Below are positions 50 to 34,441 of a stretch of 34,441 nt of DNA, in pieces. Within the stretch, counting starts at the first letter, position 1, and each line of letters begins with the position of its first letter. Below the pieces are notes generated by a model. That model made no database searches, had not been told where the DNA came from, and was given only the letters and a program-made list of their open reading frames with translations. Position numbers and translations under genes: made by a program. Origin of the DNA: a virus; the UHGV virus genome UHGV-0156988. The stretch is one strand, 5' to 3'.

Positions 50-1306
50 GTGCTTACCGATACAAAATTAAAAAACCTCAAGCCGCAGGACAAACTGTAC
101 AAGGTCTCCGATCGTGACGGGCTGTATGTAGCTGTGCTTACGTCAGGCACGGTCTCGTTTCGCTATGACTACCGTATCAACGGTCGCCGCGAAACACTGG
201 TAATCGGGCAGTATGGGCGTGACGGTATCAGCCTGGCAGAAGCGCGAGAAGAACTGATTGCTGCAAAGAAGCTGCTTAAAGCAGGCCAGTCACCGGCTGC
301 GGCTAAACGTGACGGTATCAAAAAGATTCGTGGTGCCGAGACGTTTGCGGTACATACCGACAGTTATATGAAACACGTCATCCTGGCTGACAGTACCCGC
401 GCAATGAAGCAGGCGGTGATCGACCGTGACATACTTCCGGTTCTTGGCAACAAAATGATGGCTGAAATTACCACATCGATGGTTCGTGATTTGTGTGACC
501 GGATTGTCGAACGCGGTGGTCGGGCAACAGCAGTACAGGCCAGGGAGATCATCAGCAGCGTATACCGTCACGCCAATGACCGTGGTCATGGCTTGTTTAA
601 TCCTGCGGCTGACATTAAACCTTCGTCTATCGCCATATTTAAACCACGAGAGCGAACACTGACACCAGAAGAAATTGGCCTGTTCTTCCGCACGCTGGAT
701 GCCATTGGTGCTATGGGCACTATGAAAATGGCTTTAAAGCTGGTGCTTATCACTATGGTTCGTAAAGGCGAATTCACCAATGCAACGTGGGATGAAATAG
801 ATTTTAAAAAATGGACATGGACAATTCCTTCAGACCGCATGAAGGGAAGCCGGGCGCACGTTATTTACCTGCCTAAACAGGCACAGGATATATTGGTTGG
901 GTTGCAGATGTGCGCTGGTGGAAGTGAATATCTGGTTCCTGGTCGTTACAATTTCCGGAAGCCATTATCTAATGCCGCGCTGAACTCTCTGATCGACAGA
1001 ACGGTGAAAATAATAAATGAAGATGGTGAGCATATTCAGGACTTCACCGTACACGATATGCGCCGTACAGCCAGTACGTTGTTGCATGAGGCTGGTTATC
1101 CTTCAGACTGGATTGAAAAGGCTCTGGCACATGAGCAGAAAGGTGTGCGCGCCGTATATAACAAAGCGGAATACGCCAGACAGCGCGCCTACATGTTGCA
1201 GCAGTGGGCCGATATGATTGATTCCTGGATTAACGGGGAGCATACGGATCTGATTCCGTTCTCCCCGTCGAAGTTTGAGAGGTGGATGGAAGACAGTAAT
1301 AAATAA
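50..1306 (+). CDS. int: Tyrosine recombinase / prophage integrase, P4-type
   Basis: 418-aa ORF with GTG start 4 nt after GGGTGA; N-terminus LTDTKLKNLKP..YKVSDRDGLY resembles P4-family integrases; C-terminal HDMRRT...Y catalytic region. Confidence 0.9.
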   Translation: MLTDTKLKNLKPQDKLYKVSDRDGLYVAVLTSGTVSFRYDYRINGRRETLVIGQYGRDGISLAEAREELIAAKKLLKAGQSPAAAKRDGIKKIRGAETFAVHTDSYMKHVILADSTRAMKQAVIDRDILPVLGNKMMAEITTSMVRDLCDRIVERGGRATAVQAREIISSVYRHANDRGHGLFNPAADIKPSSIAIFKPRERTLTPEEIGLFFRTLDAIGAMGTMKMALKLVLITMVRKGEFTNATWDEIDFKKWTWTIPSDRMKGSRAHVIYLPKQAQDILVGLQMCAGGSEYLVPGRYNFRKPLSNAALNSLIDRTVKIINEDGEHIQDFTVHDMRRTASTLLHEAGYPSDWIEKALAHEQKGVRAVYNKAEYARQRAYMLQQWADMIDSWINGEHTDLIPFSPSKFERWMEDSNK

Positions 1307-3314: not shown

Positions 3315-4256
3315 TTACATAGATGTTTCGTTTAATTCTTCCCGACGAACGCTGTAAACGTCGGTGGCTTTTGCCAGCAGTTCGTCATCATCTGAAAGTT
3401 TTTGTGCAATGTATTTGTAAGCCTTATCCAGTTCGGAGACAGTGCTGTAATTCATCGCTGCGCTGGTAAAGGCCATCAGCATTTCTTCTGGATCACGGCT
3501 GTCCGATTTACGCGTTTGCTCATCAGGCTTTTTCGCTGGTTTAGCGTTGATCAGACTGTTCATTCCCGCAGCAGTGGTCGTTTGCGGAGTAATGTCTCGC
3601 TCAACGCGCGGTGCCGTTTCCTGTAATTCGTCTGGGGTGTAGACGCCCATGATTACGTCAGGACAGTGCAGGCGAGACCAGCGTTTTGTCGCAAGGTATG
3701 CGAGTTGTTGTTTCGGATCACTGGCCCAAAGTGTGGAGTTTCTTACCTGTGCTTGAGACAGCATTAACTCAAGCACTCGAGGTTGATCCTCGCCCTTCAT
3801 GGTTGCCCATACGCGAACACCGCAGCCTTCTTCGTCTTTTAGAGTCCAGCCTGGTGCGATATATGGATTGCCGTTTTTGGATGTTTTCTCAACAAACTTA
3901 CCGATCACGCGTTCCCACGGCCCGAACCACTCGTAGTTGATGCGATCTTTTGTTGGCGACATCGTTGAGATAACTGCGTTTACTAATTGGGCTTCATAAC
4001 CTAGCGTGCCGTTCACAACATGGGTTTTCTGAGCCACGGCAAACGGGTTCATTCCCCACTGCGCAGCCTGCATTGCCACGGCCATGCAATCAGCTGGTTT
4101 CCCGGCGAGGTGCGCCGGTACCGTTACGCGGCTTTGCGCCATTACCTCGGCGAATTTCATCAGTTGGTTCAAGCCGTCTGGGCTGAAAATAGTTGCAGCA
4201 GTTCCAGCGATTGCTGTGTCTACTGGTGCGTTGATGTTTGCGATGTCGTTGCTCAT
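3315..4256 (-). CDS. RecT/Red-beta family single-strand annealing protein
   Basis: C-terminal half resembles lambda Bet as recalled (DPKQQL...ERDITP segment); ATGA overlap with upstream nuclease gene; start taken at MSNDIAN. Confidence 0.8.
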   Translation of the reverse strand: MSNDIANINAPVDTAIAGTAATIFSPDGLNQLMKFAEVMAQSRVTVPAHLAGKPADCMAVAMQAAQWGMNPFAVAQKTHVVNGTLGYEAQLVNAVISTMSPTKDRINYEWFGPWERVIGKFVEKTSKNGNPYIAPGWTLKDEEGCGVRVWATMKGEDQPRVLELMLSQAQVRNSTLWASDPKQQLAYLATKRWSRLHCPDVIMGVYTPDELQETAPRVERDITPQTTTAAGMNSLINAKPAKKPDEQTRKSDSRDPEEMLMAFTSAAMNYSTVSELDKAYKYIAQKLSDDDELLAKATDVYSVRREELNETSM

Positions 4257-5074
4257 ATGTACATATCCTGTTTGCGTGCCCACTCAGGGCGTTTAATGAT
4301 TTCCACACCGCCCCATTCATCATTGATGCGGCATTCGTGATAGGTATTCAGATCCCGGCGGAACAGAGCGTGCCCGGCATCGACATCCTGCGCATCCAGC
4401 TCGAACACGCGTACCGGATACCGACCACAATCAATGCTTTCGCTCACGGCAAGAAAGAAAAAACCATGCGGCTGACCAGTAACCCTCATTGCGCCTTCGC
4501 GGTACATTGCGTCCTGCACGTGGTAGCGGAATTCCTCGATGTGGCGTGCAAAACGGTCCATATCTGCAACATTTTTCACGTCGACGATCACGTTGTGCTC
4601 GTTCAGCCATTTGTCTGGACGAATTCGGCACAACTCCCCCGTCTCTTCATCGTTCCAGTACATTGATGCTTCGCAGTAACCAGGTGCTTCCAGCATCCAG
4701 CGTGCCGCCGGGTGAGCCATTGCGCTATCACGCATCAGCTCCAGTTTCCGCCACTGCTCGGCATCAAGTACCGTAATCCCCATATCCGCCACATCACGAA
4801 GAAATTCCTCTTCGTCAGCTTTACCTTGTTTCGTCCGACGATCGAATTTCGGTGAAACAATGAAGCGTTTGTCGAACTCTCCAGGCTCCAGAAGCAGACA
4901 GTGCAATGCGGTTCCCATATCCAGTGCAGACTTTTTCTCTTCGTCTTCTGGTGCTGCCTGAACCCATTTAAGAAGCGCCGGATTCTTGGCAACCATGTCC
5001 AGTTGCGACTTACTCACGCCGTCACCGGCGTGGTAGTCTTCGTTGCTGATGTCGAAATAAATTCCCGGTTTCAT
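4253..5074 (-). CDS. RecE/YqaJ-like PD-(D/E)XK exonuclease
   Basis: 273-aa ORF directly upstream of and translationally coupled to the annealing protein; SD AGAGGGA before ATG; general resemblance to exonuclease VIII catalytic domain. Confidence 0.65.
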   Translation of the reverse strand: MKPGIYFDISNEDYHAGDGVSKSQLDMVAKNPALLKWVQAAPEDEEKKSALDMGTALHCLLLEPGEFDKRFIVSPKFDRRTKQGKADEEEFLRDVADMGITVLDAEQWRKLELMRDSAMAHPAARWMLEAPGYCEASMYWNDEETGELCRIRPDKWLNEHNVIVDVKNVADMDRFARHIEEFRYHVQDAMYREGAMRVTGQPHGFFFLAVSESIDCGRYPVRVFELDAQDVDAGHALFRRDLNTYHECRINDEWGGVEIIKRPEWARKQDMYI

Positions 5075-5525: not shown

Positions 5526-5544
5526 AACTTGTTACCTCGGTCTG

Positions 5545-5622
5545 TTACCGTTGAGGTAATAATTATGCGTATATGGTTTGATGTCAATAGATATGAGTTA
5601 AAAAAATTACCCGTTAGGTAAT
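5545..5622 (-). promoter_or_regulatory. Leftward early promoter bracketed by two TTACC-N5-GGTAA operator sites
   Basis: Sites at 5545-5559 and 5608-5622; on the minus strand TTGACA (5583-5588) and CATAAT (5562-5567) with 15-nt spacer lie between them. Confidence 0.5.
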
Positions 5623-5678: not shown

Positions 5679-6263
5679 TTATTGTTTGTTTTTTTCGTTC
5701 TGGTTGATGACAAATTCAATGTAACTTTCGATCTTTGCTTTCTCGGTTTCGGGTAACAATGCGTAGCGCGAGCGGTCATAGTTGATGGTTGCAGGGTCGT
5801 GCGGGTGAATAAGTAATTCATAGCCGTGACGCCCGAATGCGGATGCCACATTCTCCAGGGTGGAAATGGAAACGCTAACCTCATTGTTTAACAGGCGGCT
5901 GATTGTCACCTGGGCGACGCCGGATGCGCGGTGTAGTTTTCCCTGCGTTGAAAGGTCGCGGCTTTCGCTCATCCAGCGTTCCAGGTTGTGAGCCGCCAGC
6001 TGACCTATATCGCTCGGGCCGACAGGCTGAAAACCTTCCTGAGAAAGCGAGCGATCGATATCAAGCCAGTTACGGGGTTTATTGGCGGCAGCTTCAATTT
6101 TTCGCGCAACCTGGTCGCCGATAACCTTCTTGCCAAGAGCCCAGCGGTTTACCAGATTTGCCTGAGTTCCAAGTTTTTCTGCCATCCGCGTCTGAACACC
6201 ATTGAATTCACGGTCGATCAAGTCGTTGAGATTTTGCCTGCGGACGTCTTGGATACTTTTCAT
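5679..6263 (-). CDS. Prophage repressor candidate with two HTH-like segments and no S24 peptidase domain
   Basis: 194 aa; HTH-like segments (TRMAEKLGTQANLVNRW and VAQVTISRLLNNEVSVSISTLENVASAFG); divergent from cro-like gene across an operator cluster; own terminator. Confidence 0.6.
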   Translation of the reverse strand: MKSIQDVRRQNLNDLIDREFNGVQTRMAEKLGTQANLVNRWALGKKVIGDQVARKIEAAANKPRNWLDIDRSLSQEGFQPVGPSDIGQLAAHNLERWMSESRDLSTQGKLHRASGVAQVTISRLLNNEVSVSISTLENVASAFGRHGYELLIHPHDPATINYDRSRYALLPETEKAKIESYIEFVINQNEKNKQ

Positions 6264-6318
6264 TTTCTGGAAAATCGCCTCATATATGAATCAGTAGATG
6301 ATTCAATTTAAAGCAATA

Positions 6319-6381
6319 TTACCCAACAGGTAAATGCACCCCATAGGTAACTATCCTTGATTTTTGTTACCTTATGGGTGA
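6319..6381. promoter_or_regulatory. Operator cluster between divergent repressor and cro-like genes (three sites)
   Basis: TTACC-CAACA-GGTAA 6319-6333 (perfect); GCACC-CCATA-GGTAA 6336-6350; TTACC-TTATG-GGTGA 6367-6381; AT-rich inverted repeat 6384-6405 before cro-like start. Confidence 0.55.
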
Positions 6382-6417
6382 ATATTTATTATCTGAAATA
6401 AATATCAGGCAATAGCT

Positions 6418-8637: not shown

Positions 8638-8649
8638 ACGCCTCGACAA

Positions 8650-8726
8650 TTACCTGTTAGGTAATAAAATATTCTAAAATCTATTGATTTCGTGTCTTAT
8701 GTGGTTTTTAATTACCTCAGAGGTAA
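8650..8726 (+). promoter_or_regulatory. Promoter region bracketed by two perfect TTACC-N5-GGTAA sites
   Basis: Sites 8650-8664 and 8712-8726, centres 62 bp apart; TTGATT at 8684-8689 between them; downstream site overlaps the RBS of the 8730 gene. Confidence 0.5.
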
Positions 8727-8729
8727 ATC

Positions 8730-12379: not shown

Positions 12380-12975
12380 TGATGTCTGCTGAACCTAAAA
12401 CCTATAAACGCAAATCAACGCAATTTAAGCCACTAACAGCAATGCAGGAGGCTTATTGCCTGTCATACATCAAAACGCCTGAAAACCAGACTCAGGCAGC
12501 GATTAACGCAGGATTCTCCCCAAATACAGCGGCAGTTAAAGCCAGTGTCATGATGCGTGATGAACGCATTAAAAAACGGATTGCCGAGTTGATGGAGGAG
12601 CGCAACAAACGAATGCGCGTCAGTGCTGATTACGTTCTCATGCGCCTGGTGGAGATCGACCAGATGGACGTGATTGATATCCTCAACGACGATGGGAGTC
12701 TTAAGCCAATCCGCGAGTGGCCGAAAATATGGCGCACTACGCTTAGCGGCTTTGATCTGTCATCGACCATCATGAACATGAACGAGGATTCGATAGAGAC
12801 AATCCTCAAAAAAATTAAATGGCCTGACAAGGTGAAGAACCTCGAACTGATTGGCAAGCACGTCGATGTCAATGCATTCAAAGAACGCCTGGATGTTAAT
12901 GTGAATGTGACAATTGCTGATCGCATAGCGGCAGCCAGGAAGCGACTCAAAGAACGTCAGGATGGTAATCAGTGA
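12379..12975 (+). CDS. Terminase small subunit
   Basis: About 199 aa; immediately upstream of and overlapping terminase large subunit; start moved from ORF-track 12301 because a terminator and operators lie in that extension. Confidence 0.7.
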   Translation: MMSAEPKTYKRKSTQFKPLTAMQEAYCLSYIKTPENQTQAAINAGFSPNTAAVKASVMMRDERIKKRIAELMEERNKRMRVSADYVLMRLVEIDQMDVIDILNDDGSLKPIREWPKIWRTTLSGFDLSSTIMNMNEDSIETILKKIKWPDKVKNLELIGKHVDVNAFKERLDVNVNVTIADRIAAARKRLKERQDGNQ

Positions 12976-14447
12976 CAGATACAGCGTTATCTCCTGAAGA
13001 GCAGTTGATCGAGGATATTGCAGGGTTCACTCACGATCCGCTTGGCTATGCCCTCTATGCGTTCCCGTGGGGGGAAGAGGGGACTGAACTGGCACATGCC
13101 ACCGGCCCACATCAGTGGCAGGCTGATGCGTTCCGAGAGATACGTGATCACCTGCAGAATCCAGAGACGCGCTATCAGCCGCTTATGCTGGCACGCGCTT
13201 CTGGTCACGGTATTGGTAAATCCGCATTCATCTCAATGCTGATCAACTGGGGCATGTCCACTTGCGAGGATTGTAAGGTCGTGGTGACCGCCAACACCGA
13301 CAACCAGCTACGAACGAAGACCTGGCCGGAAATTATCAAGTGGTCGAACCTTGCCATCACGAAAGACTGGTTTACCTGTACCGCTACCGCGATGTACAGC
13401 AATGATCCTGGGCACGACAAGCGGTGGCGAGCTGACGCAATCCCCTGGTCTGAGCACAACACTGAGGCATTCGCCGGACTACACAACGAGCGCAAACGCA
13501 TCATCGTGGTTTTCGACGAAGCATCCAACATTGCCGATCTGGTGTGGGAGGTAGCAGAGGGTGCGCTGACGGACGAAGACACCGAAATCATCTGGGTGGC
13601 GTTCGGGAACCCGACGCGTAATACCGGGCGTTTCCGCGAATGTTTCCGCAAATATAAACACCGCTGGAAAACTGCGCAGATTGACAGCCGGACGGTGGAA
13701 GGCACCAACAAACAGCAGTTGCAGAAATGGGTTGATGACTACGGGGAAGACAGCGACTTCGTTAAAATCCGTGTGCGCGGCATATTCCCTGATGCATCTG
13801 AATTGCAGTTTATCCCTACCGGTCTTACTGACGAGGCAATGAAACGGGTGGTAACTGCTGCGCAGGTGGCACATGCTCCGGTGATAATCGGCGTTGACCC
13901 TGCATACTCCGGTGTTGATGACGCGGTGATATACCTGCGGCAGGGGCTGCACAGTAAGGTGCTGTGGACCGGCAACAAGACCACTGACGATCTGATTATG
14001 GCAAAGCGTATCGCTGACTTTGAAGACCAGTATCAGGCTGACGCGGTGTTCATCGACTTCGGTTACGGTACCGGGCTGAAGTCAATCGGTGACGGTTGGG
14101 GGCGCACATGGCAACTTGTTCCGTTCGGTGGTGCGTCCACTGACCCGCAGATGCTTAACAAGCGTGGGGAGATGTTCAACTCATGCAAGACATGGCTGAG
14201 GCTGGGCGGCATGCTGGATGACCAGGAAACAGCGGACGACCTGTCGGCGGCAGAGTACAAAGTTCGAGTGGACGGTAAAATCGTTATCGAACCGAAGGAA
14301 GATATCAAGGAGCGGCTTGGGCGTTCGCCGGGTAAAGGCGATGCGCTACTGCTGACGTTTGCGTTCCCTGTGTCTAAGCGTCTGCGAATTCCCGGGCAGC
14401 AGAACCAGCAAGGCAAGGCCATTACAGATTACGATCCCTATGCTTAA
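12972..14447 (+). CDS. Terminase large subunit
   Basis: 491 aa; Walker A-like ARASGHGIGKS and C-terminal nuclease region; GTG start overlapping terS stop. Confidence 0.88.
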   Translation: MTDTALSPEEQLIEDIAGFTHDPLGYALYAFPWGEEGTELAHATGPHQWQADAFREIRDHLQNPETRYQPLMLARASGHGIGKSAFISMLINWGMSTCEDCKVVVTANTDNQLRTKTWPEIIKWSNLAITKDWFTCTATAMYSNDPGHDKRWRADAIPWSEHNTEAFAGLHNERKRIIVVFDEASNIADLVWEVAEGALTDEDTEIIWVAFGNPTRNTGRFRECFRKYKHRWKTAQIDSRTVEGTNKQQLQKWVDDYGEDSDFVKIRVRGIFPDASELQFIPTGLTDEAMKRVVTAAQVAHAPVIIGVDPAYSGVDDAVIYLRQGLHSKVLWTGNKTTDDLIMAKRIADFEDQYQADAVFIDFGYGTGLKSIGDGWGRTWQLVPFGGASTDPQMLNKRGEMFNSCKTWLRLGGMLDDQETADDLSAAEYKVRVDGKIVIEPKEDIKERLGRSPGKGDALLLTFAFPVSKRLRIPGQQNQQGKAITDYDPYA

Positions 14448-14949: not shown

Positions 14950-15112
14950 GAACTGGAAGCAATGAGTTATGCCTTCCGTGGCTGTACTGGTTTACAGCAT
15001 GAAGTCATCGCAATGGCGTCCTGCTGTAAAAAGGGCGGTGATAGTCCTTCAAGGGAAACCATCACCGCCAAGCCCCTGGAACTTCTGGCATCACGGTCCT
15101 TAGGCGTGATTC

Positions 15113-15189: not shown

Positions 15190-15511
15190 AACGCTGAGAG
15201 CACTTAGCCTGTTAAGGCGCCACACTTTGTCGCGGCTCCATAAATGCTCTCATCGTTGCACCCTCGTCTCTTCCGAGGCGTCACACCGAATCGCCGGGAT
15301 GGTGAATCCCCGTGCGCGGAATAAAACCGCTCGACTTGCACATTCCGGCTACCTGGTTCGTTTGCCCGAGCAAGGGAGGGTGCCCCTTAAACGTATCCAG
15401 ACCGCTATCGGCGCATGTGCCATACGCCGTACTGCTCAAAATAAAATCTCACTCCACCTGTTCAATTTAACGACAAGCCAGTCAGGTTAATAACAGGAAT
15501 GCACTCTCTGC

Positions 15512-15526
15512 TTACCTGAAAGGTAA
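15512..15526 (+). promoter_or_regulatory. Operator site upstream of virion operon
   Basis: Perfect TTACC-TGAAA-GGTAA about 90 nt upstream of the first virion gene. Confidence 0.45.
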
Positions 15527-15616
15527 TAATTCGTGCGTTAAATGTCAACTGCCTACGATAAATAAATCATATGTGGTTAAATTGGTAATAATTTAATTGC
15601 GTACGGAGTCATTGAT

Positions 15617-19560: not shown

Positions 19561-19998
19561 ATGATCACCGACAAACTGTTGATGTTCTCCGAAGCACAGG
19601 CGGTAACTGATACCGCGGCTTCTACTGACGTAATCGATCTAGGTCCAATTGATGGAAATCGTCGCGATATCGGCGTGGGTTACCCGCTTGAGTTTTGGGC
19701 GCTGGTTAACGAAGCCGCCACGGCAAGTGGTGAGGCAACTGTAAACATCCAGTTGCAGACGAGTGAGAATAACAGCTCATGGTCCACTATTTATGATAGT
19801 GGCGCACTGGCAAAGGCTACCCTGACAGCAGGTAAACGAGTTGTTTCTGCAAAGGTGCCTGCCGGTGTTCAGCGATATCTGCGTGTTAACTACTCCGTCG
19901 CAACTGGCCCACTAACGGCCGGCAAATTCACTGCGGGTATTAGTCTGGATGTTGATGCCAATACACCGTACCCGATCCGCTCAAAAGTAACTGGTTAA
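19561..19998 (+). CDS. Hypothetical virion protein (possible capsid decoration protein)
   Basis: 145 aa, Thr/Ala/Gly-rich, directly after capsid gene with SD GGAGAAAG. Confidence 0.45.
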   Translation: MITDKLLMFSEAQAVTDTAASTDVIDLGPIDGNRRDIGVGYPLEFWALVNEAATASGEATVNIQLQTSENNSSWSTIYDSGALAKATLTAGKRVVSAKVPAGVQRYLRVNYSVATGPLTAGKFTAGISLDVDANTPYPIRSKVTG

Positions 19999-19999
19999 G

Positions 20000-20344
20000 G
20001 TGATTTCGATGTCAGGTGAGAAACCAAGATACCGCGTTCTGCGCCTCTCTCATATCCATAACACACTGTGGCCGGAGGGGGCAGAAATCGAATACGAAGG
20101 TGAGCCTGGTAGCGCACTGGAACCTGTTAACGATGCAGCCAGACAGGCAAAAGCAAAGGTAGCAGGAAAGGTGACTATGGCAGCAACCAGCACCAAAATC
20201 ATCAACGATGTGTCAGATGATGGTGAACTGGATAAGCTCCGTGAAGAGTACGAATTGCTCTTTAGCGAGAAGCCACACCATAACGCCAAAGCCGAAACGC
20301 TCCGCGAGAAGATCGCAGATAAGCGTAAAGAACTTGGCGTGTAA
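20000..20344 (+). CDS. Hypothetical protein
   Basis: 114 aa with charged helical C-terminus; followed by strong terminator. Confidence 0.45.
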   Translation: MISMSGEKPRYRVLRLSHIHNTLWPEGAEIEYEGEPGSALEPVNDAARQAKAKVAGKVTMAATSTKIINDVSDDGELDKLREEYELLFSEKPHHNAKAETLREKIADKRKELGV

Positions 20345-29120: not shown

Positions 29121-31595
29121 ATGAGACAGGAATGTATACAAGCGGTCCAGCAGGCGGCGCAGCGCACGTTAACGGCGCGAGAAATACAGAACATTGAAGA
29201 CCGCATTTATCGAAATATGCGCTCCATTGCTCGTGATGACCCGATGTCGTGGCGACAACTTTCCGAATCAGAACGGTTGTATCGTGCAGCACAATTGGCA
29301 TCTGAAGAATTACAGCGAGAAGCGGCATTAAAGAAACGTCGTGTGGCCCTCACTATAGCCGCACGTCAGAGATTGGATAAATTTATCAATAGCTATCAAG
29401 GGGCTGATGGGAAACTTGGCGCTCTTAACCGTACTATTGCTTTTAATGCAGACGGTAAATCGAATTTCCTCTCTGTTGAATCCAGAACAAAAGCCACCCG
29501 TGATTATGCATTGAGTCAATTGCAGGAGGCATTCGAAGCAGTTGATCCTCGCTTTTTTGGTCTGTTTGAAGATGAAGCGGGCGTACGTGACCTGGTATAT
29601 GAAATGCGGGGGCAAAATACTGGCAATGCTAAAGCAAGAAAAGGTGCTAAGGCGTGGAGAGAAGTTACAGAGCTGCTGCGCCGCCGGTTTAATGATGCTG
29701 GTGGGGACATTGGCTATCTCGAAAACTGGGGGATCCCTCAACATCATTCTATGGAAAAGGTTGGGGCGGTATCAAAAGATAAATGGGTTAGCGATGTTAT
29801 AGGTAAGCTGGATCGCAAATATTATACCCGAGCCGATGGACAACTGATGAACGATGCCGAGTTGTCTGCATTTCTTGGAGAGGCTTATAACACGATCGCT
29901 ACTGGTGGGCTGAATAAGCTTACTGATACCGGAATGCGAATTTCCGGCGCACGTGCTAACCGTGGTAATGCATCACGACAGATACATTTCAAAGATGCAG
30001 ATTCCTATCTGCAATATCAGCAACTTTATGGCGATCGCTCTCTATGGGAAATCATGGTCGGTCACCTTGAAGGTATCAGTAAAGATATTGCACTGGTGGA
30101 AACATATGGCCCAAACCCCGATCATGTTTTCCGCTCTCTTCTTGATCAGGTGAAGGCAGAAACGGCAACAGCTAACCCGAGTAAAACCGGTAAAGTCGAG
30201 CGGCTGGCGAACAACACAGAGAATCTGTACAACTTTATTTCCGGAAAGACACAGCCTGTAGCGAATCCGCACATCGCGCGATGGTCTGACAATATCCGCA
30301 ACTGGCTGGTTGCCAGCAGACTCGGATCCGCGTTGCTGTCATCGTTCTCTGATCTTGGAACCATGTATCTGTCTGCGAAGGTTACCAACCTTCCAATGAA
30401 CCAGTTATTCCGCAACCAGCTTGAAGCTATGGACCCAACGAACCGTACAGAACTTGCGCGGGCGCGCCGCGCTGGTCTGGCGATGGAATCTCTACTTGGC
30501 AGCGTTAACCGCTGGGCGATGGATAATATGGGGCCGTCTGTGTCTCGTTGGGCTGCAACGGCGGTAATGCGTGCCAGTGGGCTTACAGCATGGTCAGATG
30601 CGCACAAGCGCGCCTATGGCGTAACCATGATGGGAAGCCTGGGAGAAGTAGTGTCACGGACACCAGACCTTCGTAGCCTCGATGATTCTGATTTTCGTAT
30701 CCTGAAAAGCAAAGGGATTACTGACACAGACTGGAGCGTATGGAAGCTGGCGCAACAGGAGGACTGGGGGAACGGCAATAATACGATGCTGACACCGGAA
30801 AGCATTATGCGTATCCCTGATTCAGCAGTTAAACATCTTGGTGAGCCTGAACGCGTGAAATTTGAGGCAATGCGTAAACTGCTCGGTGCCGTAACTGAAG
30901 AAGTTGATATGGCTGTTATTACACCGGGAGCACGTGAGCAACTGATAACCGGTTCTGGTATTCAGCGTGGAACATGGAAAGGTGAATTAACGAGAAGTGT
31001 TTTCCTGTTTAAATCGTTCCCTATCTCGGTGGTTATGCGTCACTGGTCACGCGCTATGGGTATGCCGTCTGCTGGTGGGCGTGCGGCATATATTGCGACG
31101 TTTATTGCCAGTACGACCATTCTTGGCGCTTTGTCGCAGCAACTTAACGACCTTGCGTCTGGTCGTAATCCTCGCGAGATGACAGGAGAAGATGCTGCTA
31201 AATTTTGGCTTGGTGCTCTACTGAAAGGTGGTGGTCTTGGCCTTTACGGTGACTTTTTATTGTCAGATCACACTAGGTACGGAAGCGGCGCGCTGGCGTC
31301 GATGCTTGGCCCGGTAGCTGGTCTGGTTGATGACGTAGTGAAGATTGCTCAGGGCATACCGTTAAATGCTGTGGAAGGGAAGAGTGAGCAGACTGGTGGT
31401 GATCTGGTGAAGCTGGGGAAAGGTTTGATGCCAGGTGCGAATCTCTGGTACTTAAAGGCGGCTCTCGATCATATGATCTTTAACCAGATGCAGGAGTATT
31501 TTTCACCAGGCTATTTGCGTAAAATGGAGCAACGTTCGAAGAAAGAGTTTAACCAGACATACTGGTGGCGACCTCAGGATGTCACTCCGCAATAA
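29121..31595 (+). CDS. Internal virion / ejection protein (possible C-terminal part of a split gp16 analogue)
   Basis: 824 aa; last large gene before tailspike. Confidence 0.5.
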   Translation: MRQECIQAVQQAAQRTLTAREIQNIEDRIYRNMRSIARDDPMSWRQLSESERLYRAAQLASEELQREAALKKRRVALTIAARQRLDKFINSYQGADGKLGALNRTIAFNADGKSNFLSVESRTKATRDYALSQLQEAFEAVDPRFFGLFEDEAGVRDLVYEMRGQNTGNAKARKGAKAWREVTELLRRRFNDAGGDIGYLENWGIPQHHSMEKVGAVSKDKWVSDVIGKLDRKYYTRADGQLMNDAELSAFLGEAYNTIATGGLNKLTDTGMRISGARANRGNASRQIHFKDADSYLQYQQLYGDRSLWEIMVGHLEGISKDIALVETYGPNPDHVFRSLLDQVKAETATANPSKTGKVERLANNTENLYNFISGKTQPVANPHIARWSDNIRNWLVASRLGSALLSSFSDLGTMYLSAKVTNLPMNQLFRNQLEAMDPTNRTELARARRAGLAMESLLGSVNRWAMDNMGPSVSRWAATAVMRASGLTAWSDAHKRAYGVTMMGSLGEVVSRTPDLRSLDDSDFRILKSKGITDTDWSVWKLAQQEDWGNGNNTMLTPESIMRIPDSAVKHLGEPERVKFEAMRKLLGAVTEEVDMAVITPGAREQLITGSGIQRGTWKGELTRSVFLFKSFPISVVMRHWSRAMGMPSAGGRAAYIATFIASTTILGALSQQLNDLASGRNPREMTGEDAAKFWLGALLKGGGLGLYGDFLLSDHTRYGSGALASMLGPVAGLVDDVVKIAQGIPLNAVEGKSEQTGGDLVKLGKGLMPGANLWYLKAALDHMIFNQMQEYFSPGYLRKMEQRSKKEFNQTYWWRPQDVTPQ

Positions 31596-31604
31596 GGAAG
31601 TGTT

Positions 31605-31781
31605 GTGTTTTTAATTATTTTGAGTGTGATAATTTCTGGTGGGTTGTTATTTATTGACCGCTACAAATATTTTCTTAACCCTCAGACTCAAGCTATTTGC
31701 TGGTTCATCTTTGTTGTGCAGGGAATAGTTCTTGTTGCAAGCCTTATTGAGGGGAGGCCTCTGATTTTTACTGGGTAAATA
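31605..31781 (+). CDS. Small hydrophobic peptide, two predicted TM segments
   Basis: Not in ORF track; GTG 31605 (or 31626) after AGGAAG; about 58 aa, almost entirely hydrophobic. Confidence 0.25.
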
Positions 31782-31790
31782 GGTGACTAC

Positions 31791-32087
31791 ATGCAAGCTA
31801 TAGGATTCATTGTTTATATCGTCGTTGGTCTTTTTCAGTTGGCAGCAATTATGGCTGGGCTTGAATCATGGTGGGGATTGCACTGGATAATTGCAGCCCC
31901 CATTGCTTTCATCGTGAGCTATATTCCATTTGTTGGAGCGATTGTTGGTATGGTTGGCGCTGTGGATGTATGGCGGTGGGAGTGGTGGCAGGCTGGCCTT
32001 CTCTTCTTTGGTGGGATCATCTTTGCTATTGTCTGCGGTGGAATGTCATCATTTTTCGAATGGCTATCATTCAGAAAAAGAGCGTGA
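31791..32087 (+). CDS. Small integral membrane protein, three predicted TM segments
   Basis: 98 aa, SD AGGTGA; Gly/Ile/Val/Trp-rich hydrophobic stretches with basic C-terminus FRKRA. Confidence 0.6.
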   Translation: MQAIGFIVYIVVGLFQLAAIMAGLESWWGLHWIIAAPIAFIVSYIPFVGAIVGMVGAVDVWRWEWWQAGLLFFGGIIFAIVCGGMSSFFEWLSFRKRA

Positions 32088-32095
32088 CATGTCAC

Positions 32096-32113
32096 AGGCC
32101 GCTCTTGCGGCCT
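32096..32113. terminator. Bidirectional terminator hairpin between convergent genes
   Basis: AGGCCGC-TCTT-GCGGCCT; TTTAAATTT on plus side, CTCTTTTTCT on minus side; abuts GTGACATGTCAC at 32084-32095. Confidence 0.55.
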
Positions 32114-32119
32114 TTAAAT

Positions 32120-32377
32120 TTACCGGGTTTGTTTTCGTAATTGTTCGGCACAATAGTCGAGATGTGTTTGCAGATCCCGCATAGACATCTGTGAGCTGGT
32201 GACGTAGTTAATCAGTGCAGTCAGTTCGGCAAGTGGGCCATCGACATTAAATCCATCCTTATCGAGATCCCGGAGTAATTTCATCAAGTGCGATCCTTCC
32301 ACCAGTGACCTGACGCCTCCCGGCGTGTGAATCCTTTCGGTAAATCCGTCTTCCAGTGGATAGTGATACTGCTGCAT
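32120..32377 (-). CDS. LexA-controlled small acidic protein, candidate antirepressor
   Basis: 85 aa from MQQYHY with SD GGAGAAG; LexA box at 32398-32417 overlaps a TGtATAAAT extended -10; own terminator. Confidence 0.5.
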   Translation of the reverse strand: MQQYHYPLEDGFTERIHTPGGVRSLVEGSHLMKLLRDLDKDGFNVDGPLAELTALINYVTSSQMSMRDLQTHLDYCAEQLRKQTR

Positions 32378-32397
32378 CTTAATCTTCTCCATGCAAT

Positions 32398-32417
32398 AAC
32401 TGTATATTTATACAGTA
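32398..32417 (-). promoter_or_regulatory. LexA (SOS) box
   Basis: Plus-strand AACTGTATATTTATACAGTA: CTGT-N8-ACAG with AT-rich spacer, one or two mismatches from TACTGTATATATATACAGTA. Confidence 0.7.
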
Positions 32418-32454
32418 GCAAATAATTTGTTTGCTATCCAGCACGTTTTGCAAA

Positions 32455-32469
32455 TTACCAGAAAGGTAA
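32455..32469 (+). promoter_or_regulatory. Operator site upstream of tailspike gene
   Basis: Perfect TTACC-AGAAA-GGTAA between the LexA-controlled gene and the tailspike gene. Confidence 0.45.
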
Positions 32470-32575
32470 TATCTATTCGTATCCATAGTTTTTCTATGCA
32501 TATATGGTTTTTCAGGTAATAGAATGGATGGGACTGCATGCGCGATGGGCGCACAAGCTATCCGGAGATAATGAC

Positions 32576-33889
32576 ATGACGGTCTCAACCGAAGTCGACC
32601 ATAACGAATACACCGGGAATGGCGTCACGACGATATTCCCTTATACCTTCAGAATTTTTCAGAAGTCTGATCTGGTTGTTCAGGTTGTAGACCTGGATGA
32701 AAACTTGACAGTATTGACACTTGATACAGATTACACGGTAACTGGTGCAGGCGGTTACGCTGGTGGGAATGTCACCCTGACGACAGCGCTCGTAAGCGGT
32801 TACCAGATATCTATATCTCGAGAGCTTCCAGTTACCCAGGAAACAGATCTTCGCAATCAGGGTAAGTTCTTTGCAGAAGTTCATGAGGATGCTTTTGATA
32901 AACTGACAATGCTGATCCAACAGGTTCGCAGCTGGTTTAGCCTTGCGCTTCGTAAACCATCATTTATTGCAAACTATTATGATGCGCTGAACAATTACAT
33001 TCGTAATCTAAGAGACCCAGAAAGGCCTCAAGATGCAGCAACCAGAAACTATGTTGATACAGTATCAACGGCAAACCTCAATCGAACACTTCGTACGCCT
33101 GAACCTATCCCAGAACTACCTGGAGTTGAAGAGCGTAAAAATAAACTTGTTGCTATGGATGATTCTGGTAATCCTATTATGGTATTGCCTGAATCAGGAT
33201 CTGCATCGGATGTTCTCATTGAACTTGCCAAGCCAACTGGGGCAGGGTTGATAGGCATTAAACCAGGAGGAAATGTTCAACAAGCGCTATATTACGTTAC
33301 TCCCGAACAGTTCGGGGCAATCGGAGATGGCACTCTTCATCTATTATCAGAAAAATATTCTACCCTAACTGACGCGCAGTCAGTGTATCCGCTTGCAACA
33401 AGTTTGTCTCAGTCAATTGATTGGGCTGCTATGCAAACAGCTGATAGTGTTGCTCGAGAATTAAAATGTTCGGTCCGTTGTCCAACGTTGAAAAAATACA
33501 GATTCTCATCCCTTGACACGTTAATGCTGGATATCGACAGTTGCTTTATTGGCGGTCCGCAATCTGATCATTTGCATGGGACAATGATAATCAAAGACAA
33601 ACCACCGGTGACAGCATCAACAAATATTGGCGATATCTGCATAGTCAAGGTCAAAAAGGCTTCCGACACTGTATCAACCAATGGATTTGTCAATGGAGTG
33701 GTATTCCAGGGTTTTTCTCTTGAGTGGGCAAATGTTGCGTGGATGTCCGCTGTTAAAGGTGATTTGTCAATTTGCCTTCATATGAACGATGCGATCAAAG
33801 CAAAAGTAGACGTCAGCGTATGGGGCGGGGAATTTGGGGTATACGGGTATGGCTGCTGGGGAATGGTTGGTACTTTGCCGAATGCATGA
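32576..33889 (+). CDS. Tailspike / tail fibre protein with T7 gp17-like N-terminal adaptor; probably 3-prime truncated
   Basis: Start at ATG 32576 (SD GGAG); N-terminal NEYTGNGVTTIFPYTF motif; later PEQFGAIGDG region suggests start of a beta-helix; only 438 aa and ends at a junction with unrelated sequence. Confidence 0.65.
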   Translation: MTVSTEVDHNEYTGNGVTTIFPYTFRIFQKSDLVVQVVDLDENLTVLTLDTDYTVTGAGGYAGGNVTLTTALVSGYQISISRELPVTQETDLRNQGKFFAEVHEDAFDKLTMLIQQVRSWFSLALRKPSFIANYYDALNNYIRNLRDPERPQDAATRNYVDTVSTANLNRTLRTPEPIPELPGVEERKNKLVAMDDSGNPIMVLPESGSASDVLIELAKPTGAGLIGIKPGGNVQQALYYVTPEQFGAIGDGTLHLLSEKYSTLTDAQSVYPLATSLSQSIDWAAMQTADSVARELKCSVRCPTLKKYRFSSLDTLMLDIDSCFIGGPQSDHLHGTMIIKDKPPVTASTNIGDICIVKVKKASDTVSTNGFVNGVVFQGFSLEWANVAWMSAVKGDLSICLHMNDAIKAKVDVSVWGGEFGVYGYGCWGMVGTLPNA

Positions 33890-34355
33890 AGAGATAATCG
33901 GCATGATCGGCCGACACGTGCCTGAGTTTGATATTGCGGCAGTTCCAAAGCGTTTCCATCGCGTCGGAGAGTTCTACCTGCTCGAGGTCGATATTTTCCA
34001 TGTCGCGGAACATCTTCGGCGCGTCGATTCGGGTGTGCTTCATGCGCACATCGTCGGCGTACCAGATGGCGGCGCGGGCGCCGGGCGAAAAGCGGCCGCC
34101 CTCGAGCACCACATGTTTGGCGTGCCAGAAGGGGTATTTGCCTTCAAAGAGGCATTCTCGGGCAGTGATGTTTTCGACGTGCTTTAAGGCGGATTCGCCC
34201 GGGTGAATGACAACGTGGTCGAGCTCCGCGCTGCGGAGCGCAAAAAGCGGGCGCTCACCGCCGTATTCGACATTTTGGAGGATCTGCATTTTTTGTCCTG
34301 TTTGAATGGTGAGGCTCACCCGAAAAAAAGCGATGCCGGCATCTCTTTGGGGCAT
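33813..34355 (-). CDS. Hypothetical protein in a compositionally distinct segment (possibly a truncated flanking gene)
   Basis: 180-aa ORF; 3-prime end overlaps tailspike ORF by 77 nt; segment looks more GC-rich than the prophage by eye; alternative start at 34289. Confidence 0.35.
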   Translation of the reverse strand: MPQRDAGIAFFRVSLTIQTGQKMQILQNVEYGGERPLFALRSAELDHVVIHPGESALKHVENITARECLFEGKYPFWHAKHVVLEGGRFSPGARAAIWYADDVRMKHTRIDAPKMFRDMENIDLEQVELSDAMETLWNCRNIKLRHVSADHADYLFMHSAKYQPFPSSHTRIPQIPRPIR

Positions 34356-34441
34356 CGTCGGGCAGCGATGATGAATCGCTTCAAACTCTAAGACCGCAGG
34401 CTTTGGCCCGCCCTGCTGATCGCCGCAAAGAACTGTACGAT

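Follow-up and report, generated by a model that had tools for sequence, protein, structure and literature searches.

How a temperate phage can be induced by DNA damage when its repressor carries no recognisable autoprotease domain is the question raised by a small gene near the right end of the viral DNA analysed here, a stretch of 34,441 nucleotides called the window in what follows. The initial annotation, made from the sequence alone, had proposed that a near-consensus LexA box controls this gene, and that its product is an antirepressor acting on a non-cleavable repressor encoded some 26 kb away. Our analysis agrees with this proposal. The locus is very probably a lysis-lysogeny induction module, orthologous to the Rep/Ant system of the Salmonella phage SPC32H. 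Homology of both proteins to PDB 5D50, the order of the genes and the position of the box argue for a LexA-repressed antirepressor, here called Ant, directed against a repressor, Rep, that would not be cleaved. The distance between ant and rep was measured as 26.1 kb, as had been estimated.

The window is identified by its genes as most of a temperate short-tailed phage or prophage of the phiV10/epsilon15 type (genus Uetakevirus). Its gene order corresponds one for one to the annotated records of phiV10 and SPC32H, with the replication genes located after the rep/cro-like region (Table 1). The guaA attachment core ATTGAGTGGGAATGATT was searched for in the window and is absent, because the window begins only 49 nt upstream of the integrase gene. 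Two small hydrophobic open reading frames of 57 aa (31605-31778) and 98 aa (31791-32087), both on the + strand, separate the gene of the 824-aa virion protein from ant. The second one, a membrane-protein gene convergent with ant, belongs to PHROG 3075, of unknown function. In phiV10, the same slot is occupied by a 46-aa membrane protein and a Bro-N module, and the slot is regarded as a variable cargo position.

Table 1. Positions in the window of the phage genes and of the elements assigned to the putative induction module.
Feature	Position	Strand	Basis or remark
Integrase gene (int)	50-1306		
Exonuclease gene	4253-5074	minus	
Two operator-like palindromes	5544-5560, 5606-5622		Between rep and the leftward early genes
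rep, 194-aa HTH repressor	5679-6263	minus	Match to PDB 5D50 chain A; predicted target of Ant
Operator-like palindrome	6318-6334		rep/cro-like intergenic region
cro-like gene, 76 aa	6418-6648	+	PHROG 35; divergent from rep
Large terminase gene	12972-14447		Followed by the structural genes
Gene of the 824-aa virion protein	29121-31595		Followed by ant, then by the tailspike gene (from 32576)
GC-rich hairpin, 7-bp stem	32096-32113		Terminator scan; after the ant stop codon
ant, 85-aa antirepressor (predicted SPC32H Ant orthologue)	32120-32377	minus	Match to PDB 5D50
Shine-Dalgarno sequence GGAG	32387-32390	minus	9 nt upstream of the ATG at 32377
Predicted LexA operator (SOS box)	32398-32417		LexA matrix; AACTGTATATTTATACAGTA, or TACTGTATAAATATACAGTT on the ant strand
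Candidate ant promoter	32412-32440	minus	TGGATA-17-TGcTACTGT; relaxed scan of relatives
Candidate ant -10, TACTGT	32412-32417	minus	Left arm of the LexA box
Candidate ant TG	32419-32420	minus	
Candidate ant -35, TGGATA	32435-32440	minus	17-nt spacer to the -10
Perfect palindrome ATTACC-N5-GGTAAT, probable Rep operator	32454-32470		ant-tailspike intergenic region
All ATTACC-N5-GGTAAT palindrome sites, 17 bp each	5544, 5606, 6318, 6703, 8649, 8711, 12346, 12364, 15511, 24785, 32454		

The identity of the small protein is given by its homologues. Ant matches chain E of PDB 5D50, an 'Anti-repressor protein', with an E-value of 1.6e-46 (residues 7-89 of the 90-aa open reading frame aligned), and shares 74 of its 85 residues (87.1% identity) with the Ant protein of SPC32H (GenBank KC911856). 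Proteins of the phages phiv142-3 and HEMP4 are 100% identical to it. That no recognisable motif had been seen in this protein at first is due to missing annotation and not to novelty, since UniRef already gives the exact sequence the name 'Anti-repressor protein'. The same sequence is a 'hypothetical protein' in NCBI records, including those of phiV10, ZX5, phiv142-3 and RefSeq E. coli genomes, and no NCBIfam model for it was found. Among the PHROG families, it matches phrog_450 and phrog_15539, both labelled as of unknown function, and its residues 27-75 match the C-terminal part of phrog_1760, an 'anti-repressor'. A Pfam search at E<=1 returned only a sub-threshold match to DUF724, and no DinI/Tum-type or other antirepressor domain. 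A second Ant-like gene was sought in the window and none was found; tblastn detected two Ant-like places in several phages, the second of which may be the C-terminus of a Bro-N gene.

The open reading frame of ant (32392-32120) could encode 90 aa, or 85 aa if translation starts at the internal ATG (32377). The shorter version, which was also the original call, is taken as the correct one because its start is aligned with the annotated start of SPC32H ant. A 1-nt indel shifts the upstream ATG at 32392 out of frame in phiV10 and SPC32H, and the Klebsiella phages lack this ATG. The Shine-Dalgarno sequence attributed to the gene is present, and its GGAG is unchanged in all ten aligned ant upstream regions. 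The protein had been described as acidic, which applies only mildly (12 D+E against 9 K+R). A terminator had been assigned to the gene as well. The hairpin is indeed found after the stop codon, but it is flagged by the scan on the + strand only, where the stem is directly followed by a T-run; the U-run of the ant strand begins 16 nt past the stem. Since the T-run is adjacent only on the + strand, the structure looks like a terminator common to convergent genes, and it is probably shared by ant and the gene of the 98-aa membrane protein.

A standard promoter scan (threshold 9/12) identified no site upstream of ant. The scan was also run in a relaxed form across the ant upstream regions of the relatives. 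The combination TGGATA-17-TGnTACTGT is the only -35/-10 pair that is co-positioned in all six Escherichia coli, Salmonella and Enterobacter phages, and it is weak by consensus, with a score of 7/12. Transcription of ant is predicted to start near 32405. Since the -10 of this candidate coincides with the left arm of the LexA box, bound LexA would cover approximately -12 to +8. The extended -10 (TGtATAAAT) favoured in the initial annotation was rejected as the main ant promoter: it is not conserved in the relatives, and it is non-canonical because its hexamer ATAAAT has a T at position 2. The conserved pair is preferred in its place.

The LexA box was scored with a matrix of 27 E. coli operators (Lewis 1994, Fernandez de Henestrosa 2000 sets); the exact scores are approximate. 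The predicted operator is situated 20 nt upstream of ant and has its core CTGT-N8-ACAG at 32400-32415. With a heterology index of 1.11 (28 bits), it surpasses every site of the training set (range 1.4-9.6). The second-best site within the window has an index of 10.7, and when the window was randomised 500 times with a first-order Markov model, none of the sequences reached 1.11, the median of their best sites being 11.9. Another CTGT-N8-ACAG match in the window, at 14982, is outside the ten best-scoring LexA sites. The weight matrix thus bears out the strong SOS box that had been recognised by eye, which is by far the best in the window.

A LexA-like box is also found at the equivalent position in 10 related phages of Escherichia, Salmonella, Enterobacter and Klebsiella. 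It ends 18-20 nt before the ant ATG in these ten phages, and its heterology index of 1.1-7.5 falls inside the range of genuine E. coli operators. The upstream flanks of ant diverge among the ten, with a mean column identity of 76%. In the four Klebsiella phages, the left arm reads ATGT and not CTGT (index 6.7-7.5); this is a weaker yet plausible LexA site, and the control of Ant might be leakier. Every column of the window box can be matched to the SPC32H box and to the site mutated in SPC32N, which is reportedly a lytic variant of SPC32H. These two phages differ at two positions of the 3.2-kb ant locus, one of them a C-to-A change that alters the right-arm CAG of the box and raises the index from 2.6 to 6.6. 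This change is said to make Ant constitutive and SPC32N lytic.

The predicted target of Ant is equally recognisable. Rep matches chain A of PDB 5D50, named 'Repressor', over its full length (residues 1-190, E-value 4e-42), as well as PDB 5D4Z, which is the C-terminal domain of Rep, and it is 100% identical to phiV10 gp40. Pfam places an HTH_3 domain at residues 106-147 and a YdaS/HTH-like match at residues 21-61. According to both Pfam and the alignment with 5D50, the C-terminal half is a second HTH domain. No match to the S24 peptidase (PF00717) was obtained in the Pfam search, even at E<=1, and a lambda-type C-terminal S24 domain with a Ser-Lys dyad was likewise not found at this limit. The view of the repressor as a protein with two HTH-like segments and no S24 region therefore holds. 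The divergently oriented cro-like gene encodes a transcriptional repressor of PHROG 35 (E-value 5.7e-13) that is related to SPC32H gp42.

The palindrome ATTACC-N5-GGTAAT, searched for with at most two mismatches, occurs at 11 sites in the window against 0.78 expected, mostly in intergenic regions. It is found at syntenic positions in phiV10 and SPC32H, where the pair at 5544-5622 has its counterparts too. These sites are probably the operators of Rep, spread over many transcription units. Between rep and the cro-like gene, further half-site-like repeats are present at 6334-6351 and 6366-6383. A recurring layout was observed at 32454-32524, 5544-5622, 8649-8727 and 15511-15590, in which an operator is followed after 8-40 nt by a CATATATGGTT- or TATGTGGTT-like motif and, after a few to about 40 nt, by a second operator or a GGTAAT half-site. 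A scan for this motif gave 17 matches against 8.7 expected. It might belong to a promoter, or be bound by a second regulator.

The closest known system is the Rep/Ant switch of SPC32H (Kim & Ryu 2013, J Virol 87:11775; Kim et al. 2016, PNAS 113:E2480; PDB 5D50, 5D4Z). In both phages, ant lies antisense between the genes of the 824-aa virion protein and of the tailspike, and a cro-like gene is divergent from rep. The distance from the LexA box to the ant ATG and the operator palindrome are also shared. The features of the SPC32H type found in the window are a small Ant homologue, a Rep with two HTH domains and no S24 domain, the gene order and a predicted LexA site overlapping the candidate promoter of ant. 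The proteins are unevenly conserved: identity to SPC32H is 87% for Ant, 76% for the cro-like protein and 43% (42.7%) for Rep, which is homologous over its full length (54% in the N-terminal domain, 38.5% in the C-terminal domain). The two systems also differ in their host, which is Salmonella for SPC32H and Escherichia here, and in the internal 8 nt of the box (ATAAATAT versus ATGTTTAT), the window box being closer to the consensus. With Rep only 43% identical overall, and 38% in its C-terminal domain, the contact between Ant and Rep is a presumed one here. It is the C-terminal domain of SPC32H Rep to which Ant reportedly binds.

The induction module would function as follows. In the lysogen, host LexA, by analogy with SPC32H, would sit on the box, which extends over the -10 and the predicted start of ant transcription, and would thereby keep the gene silent. 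Rep would hold the lytic promoters off through its ATTACC-N5-GGTAAT operators and, since it has no autoprotease domain, would escape direct inactivation by RecA. After DNA damage, self-cleavage of LexA would allow the production of the 85-aa Ant, which would bind Rep and free it from the DNA, and the lytic genes would be expressed. In SPC32H, an Ant tetramer is said to bind two Rep dimers and thereby to break up the DNA-binding Rep tetramer. The strength and conservation of the box, the homology of both proteins, the gene order and the absence of an S24 domain from Rep are observed in the window itself, and the work on SPC32H makes binding of LexA and a comparable outcome of induction likely in this prophage. 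That Ant would displace Rep from its operator, and that SOS induction would proceed via Ant, is suggested by homology and by published work (PMC9638917). A review describes antirepressors of Salmonella prophages that are made after LexA self-cleavage and inhibit the repressor by protein contact (PMC7380047, citing Kim & Ryu 2013). For the repressor side, overexpression of the ZX5 repressor abolished free phage and reduced transcription of endolysin and holin by more than 99.9%, and this repressor is reported to be identical to phiV10 ORF40 (PMC9782041). As phiV10 gp40 is in turn identical to the Rep of the window, the repressor of ZX5 and this Rep are the same protein.

The phages phiV10, vB_EcoP_ZX5 and phiv142-3 (Uetakevirus) belong to the same lineage as the window, with Ant proteins that are 98.8-100% identical. 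In phiV10 and ZX5, a Bro-N 'anti-repressor' is located beside ant, whereas the window is without one. The study of ZX5 dealt with the Bro-N protein and mentions neither LexA nor SPC32H (PMC9782041).

The antirepressors of coliphage 186 (Tum), Gifsy and Fels-2 share their logic with Ant (Shearwin 1998; Lemire 2011). In these phages, as summarised in a review, a small LexA-repressed antirepressor inactivates a non-cleavable repressor by protein-protein contact (PMC7380047). Homology of Ant to Tum, GfoA or GfhA was not detected in Pfam (E<=1) and PHROG profile searches, and Ant is assigned to a separate SPC32H Ant family that has only this logic in common with 186 Tum and Gifsy. The Gifsy/186 paradigm invoked in the initial annotation is thus appropriate for the function, but not as a family relation. 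SPC32H Ant is reportedly distinct in structure from the antirepressors of siphoviruses and myoviruses. In P22, another short-tailed temperate phage, the antirepressor gene ant of immI is located just upstream of the tailspike gene. P22 Ant differs by its size of ~300 aa and by its control, which is exerted by Mnt, Arc and an antisense RNA and not by LexA; according to the review, it is not needed for SOS induction because the C2 repressor of P22 is cleavable (PMC7380047).

The end of the window bears on what induction of this particular copy would produce. The tailspike open reading frame (32576-33889) encodes 437 aa, and its homology to a 676-aa tail fibre of phage C1 breaks off 15 nt short of the stop codon, at about 33874, after which the GC content changes from ~43% to 61%. 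A truncated DUF3737 open reading frame (33813-34355, minus strand) covers profile positions 3-137 of 275. A megablast search of 5426 complete E. coli genomes found no match to the right end (33875-34441). Positions 29576-34441 (4866 nt compared) are identical to a 58,440-bp metagenome contig (ENA ERZ507880 NODE_88). An independent contig of 40,822 bp (ERZ19693276) has the junction between tailspike and high-GC sequence and the next 220 bp in common with the window, and diverges at 34095 into AT-rich sequence. For the stretch from 33875 to 34441, the possible origins are deletion of a prophage end, capture of a fragment or a join made in assembly.

As the tailspike looks truncated, this copy may not release infectious phage after SOS induction. 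It is conceivable, although somewhat unlikely, that an intact switch is carried by a defective prophage; Ant would then lift the repression by Rep with no infectious particles formed, and the module would be only a remnant or a trans-acting inducer of related prophages. The shortened tailspike, the abrupt end of its homology, the jump in GC content and the truncated DUF3737 gene all point in this direction, as does the occurrence of the junction in two independent metagenome assemblies. However, the window stops at 34441, so that lysis genes could lie beyond it or elsewhere, and part of the join may be an artefact of assembly, the sequence being a metagenome contig from which the second assembly departs at 34095. 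Moreover, a defect of this kind concerns the outcome of induction and not the mechanism of Ant.

A distance of 37 bp separates the LexA box from the perfect palindrome upstream of it, in the region between ant and the tailspike gene, and this palindrome is kept in all ten phages. In the record of epsilon15, the equivalent site is annotated as a repressor-binding site. Its position would suit a double control of ant, by LexA and by Rep, in which the production of Ant becomes self-reinforcing. We consider this doubtful: the centre of the operator precedes the predicted ant start by ~58 bp and does not fall within the core promoter, and the succession of an operator, 26-40 nt, a CATATrTGGTT-like motif and GGTAAT is also found upstream of + strand genes at 8649 and 15511. 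Because of this similar layout, the operator at 32454 points to a Rep-controlled tailspike promoter.

In such a divergent intergenic region, the LexA box, at 159 bp from the tailspike ATG (32576), might itself serve mainly the tailspike or another transcript, and the small open reading frame would then not be the effector of induction. This is very improbable in view of the fixed spacing of 18-20 nt between box and ant ATG in ten phages, the overlap of the box with the sole conserved promoter candidate, which reads towards ant, and the crystallisation of an Ant homologue bound to Rep (PDB 5D50). A lambda-like self-cleavage of Rep stimulated by RecA, with the small gene as an accessory, found no argument in its favour and has practically no likelihood for a protein that lacks any S24 match at E<=1 and is aligned end to end with SPC32H Rep, itself built of two HTH-type domains.

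Induction by LexA-controlled Ant thus remains the preferred reading, and the uneven conservation of its partners raises a further idea. Despite the divergence of Rep, the operator half-sites do not differ between the E. coli and Salmonella phages. The C-terminal tail of Rep (approximately residues 162-190) is well conserved, and may form a shared interface. In phiV10, gp23 is a Bro-N 'anti-immunity'/antirepressor protein encoded just downstream of ant (phiV10 19646-20230, minus strand), with no counterpart in the window. Its residues 150-180 are 45% identical to residues 2-32 of Ant (BLASTP E-value 9e-7; phrog_450 E-value 7e-8). Together with the match of Ant to phrog_1760, this segment suggests a reusable module that would target Rep. 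Since Ant is more conserved than Rep, the half-sites are the same and gp23 carries an Ant-like segment, Ant could be a promiscuous and portable module of this kind, a proposal that we regard as speculative and rather improbable. If true, a single Ant produced under SOS conditions might also induce other, diverged Uetakevirus prophages of the cell; the module might be transferred to different antirepressor scaffolds, for induction independent of LexA, and a feedback latch might be added by the Rep operator next to the ant promoter.

The system itself is already known, its mechanism, its protein family and the crystal structure of the complex having been published since 2013-2016. It is also widespread. 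The ant locus is present in 529 of the 5426 complete E. coli genomes (~10%), and the exact 85-aa Ant occurs on at least 1000 public contigs. The practical value of the finding is one of annotation, as RefSeq, PHROGs and most phage records still label the gene 'hypothetical' or of 'unknown function'. The antirepressor of the sister E. coli phage ZX5 was sought in a 2022 study, which overlooked the ant gene (PMC9782041). The correct regulatory mechanism could be recovered by a careful reading of the raw sequence alone. Recognition of ant would mean that, in a common group of E. coli prophages, SOS induction depends on LexA and Ant and not on cleavage of the repressor.
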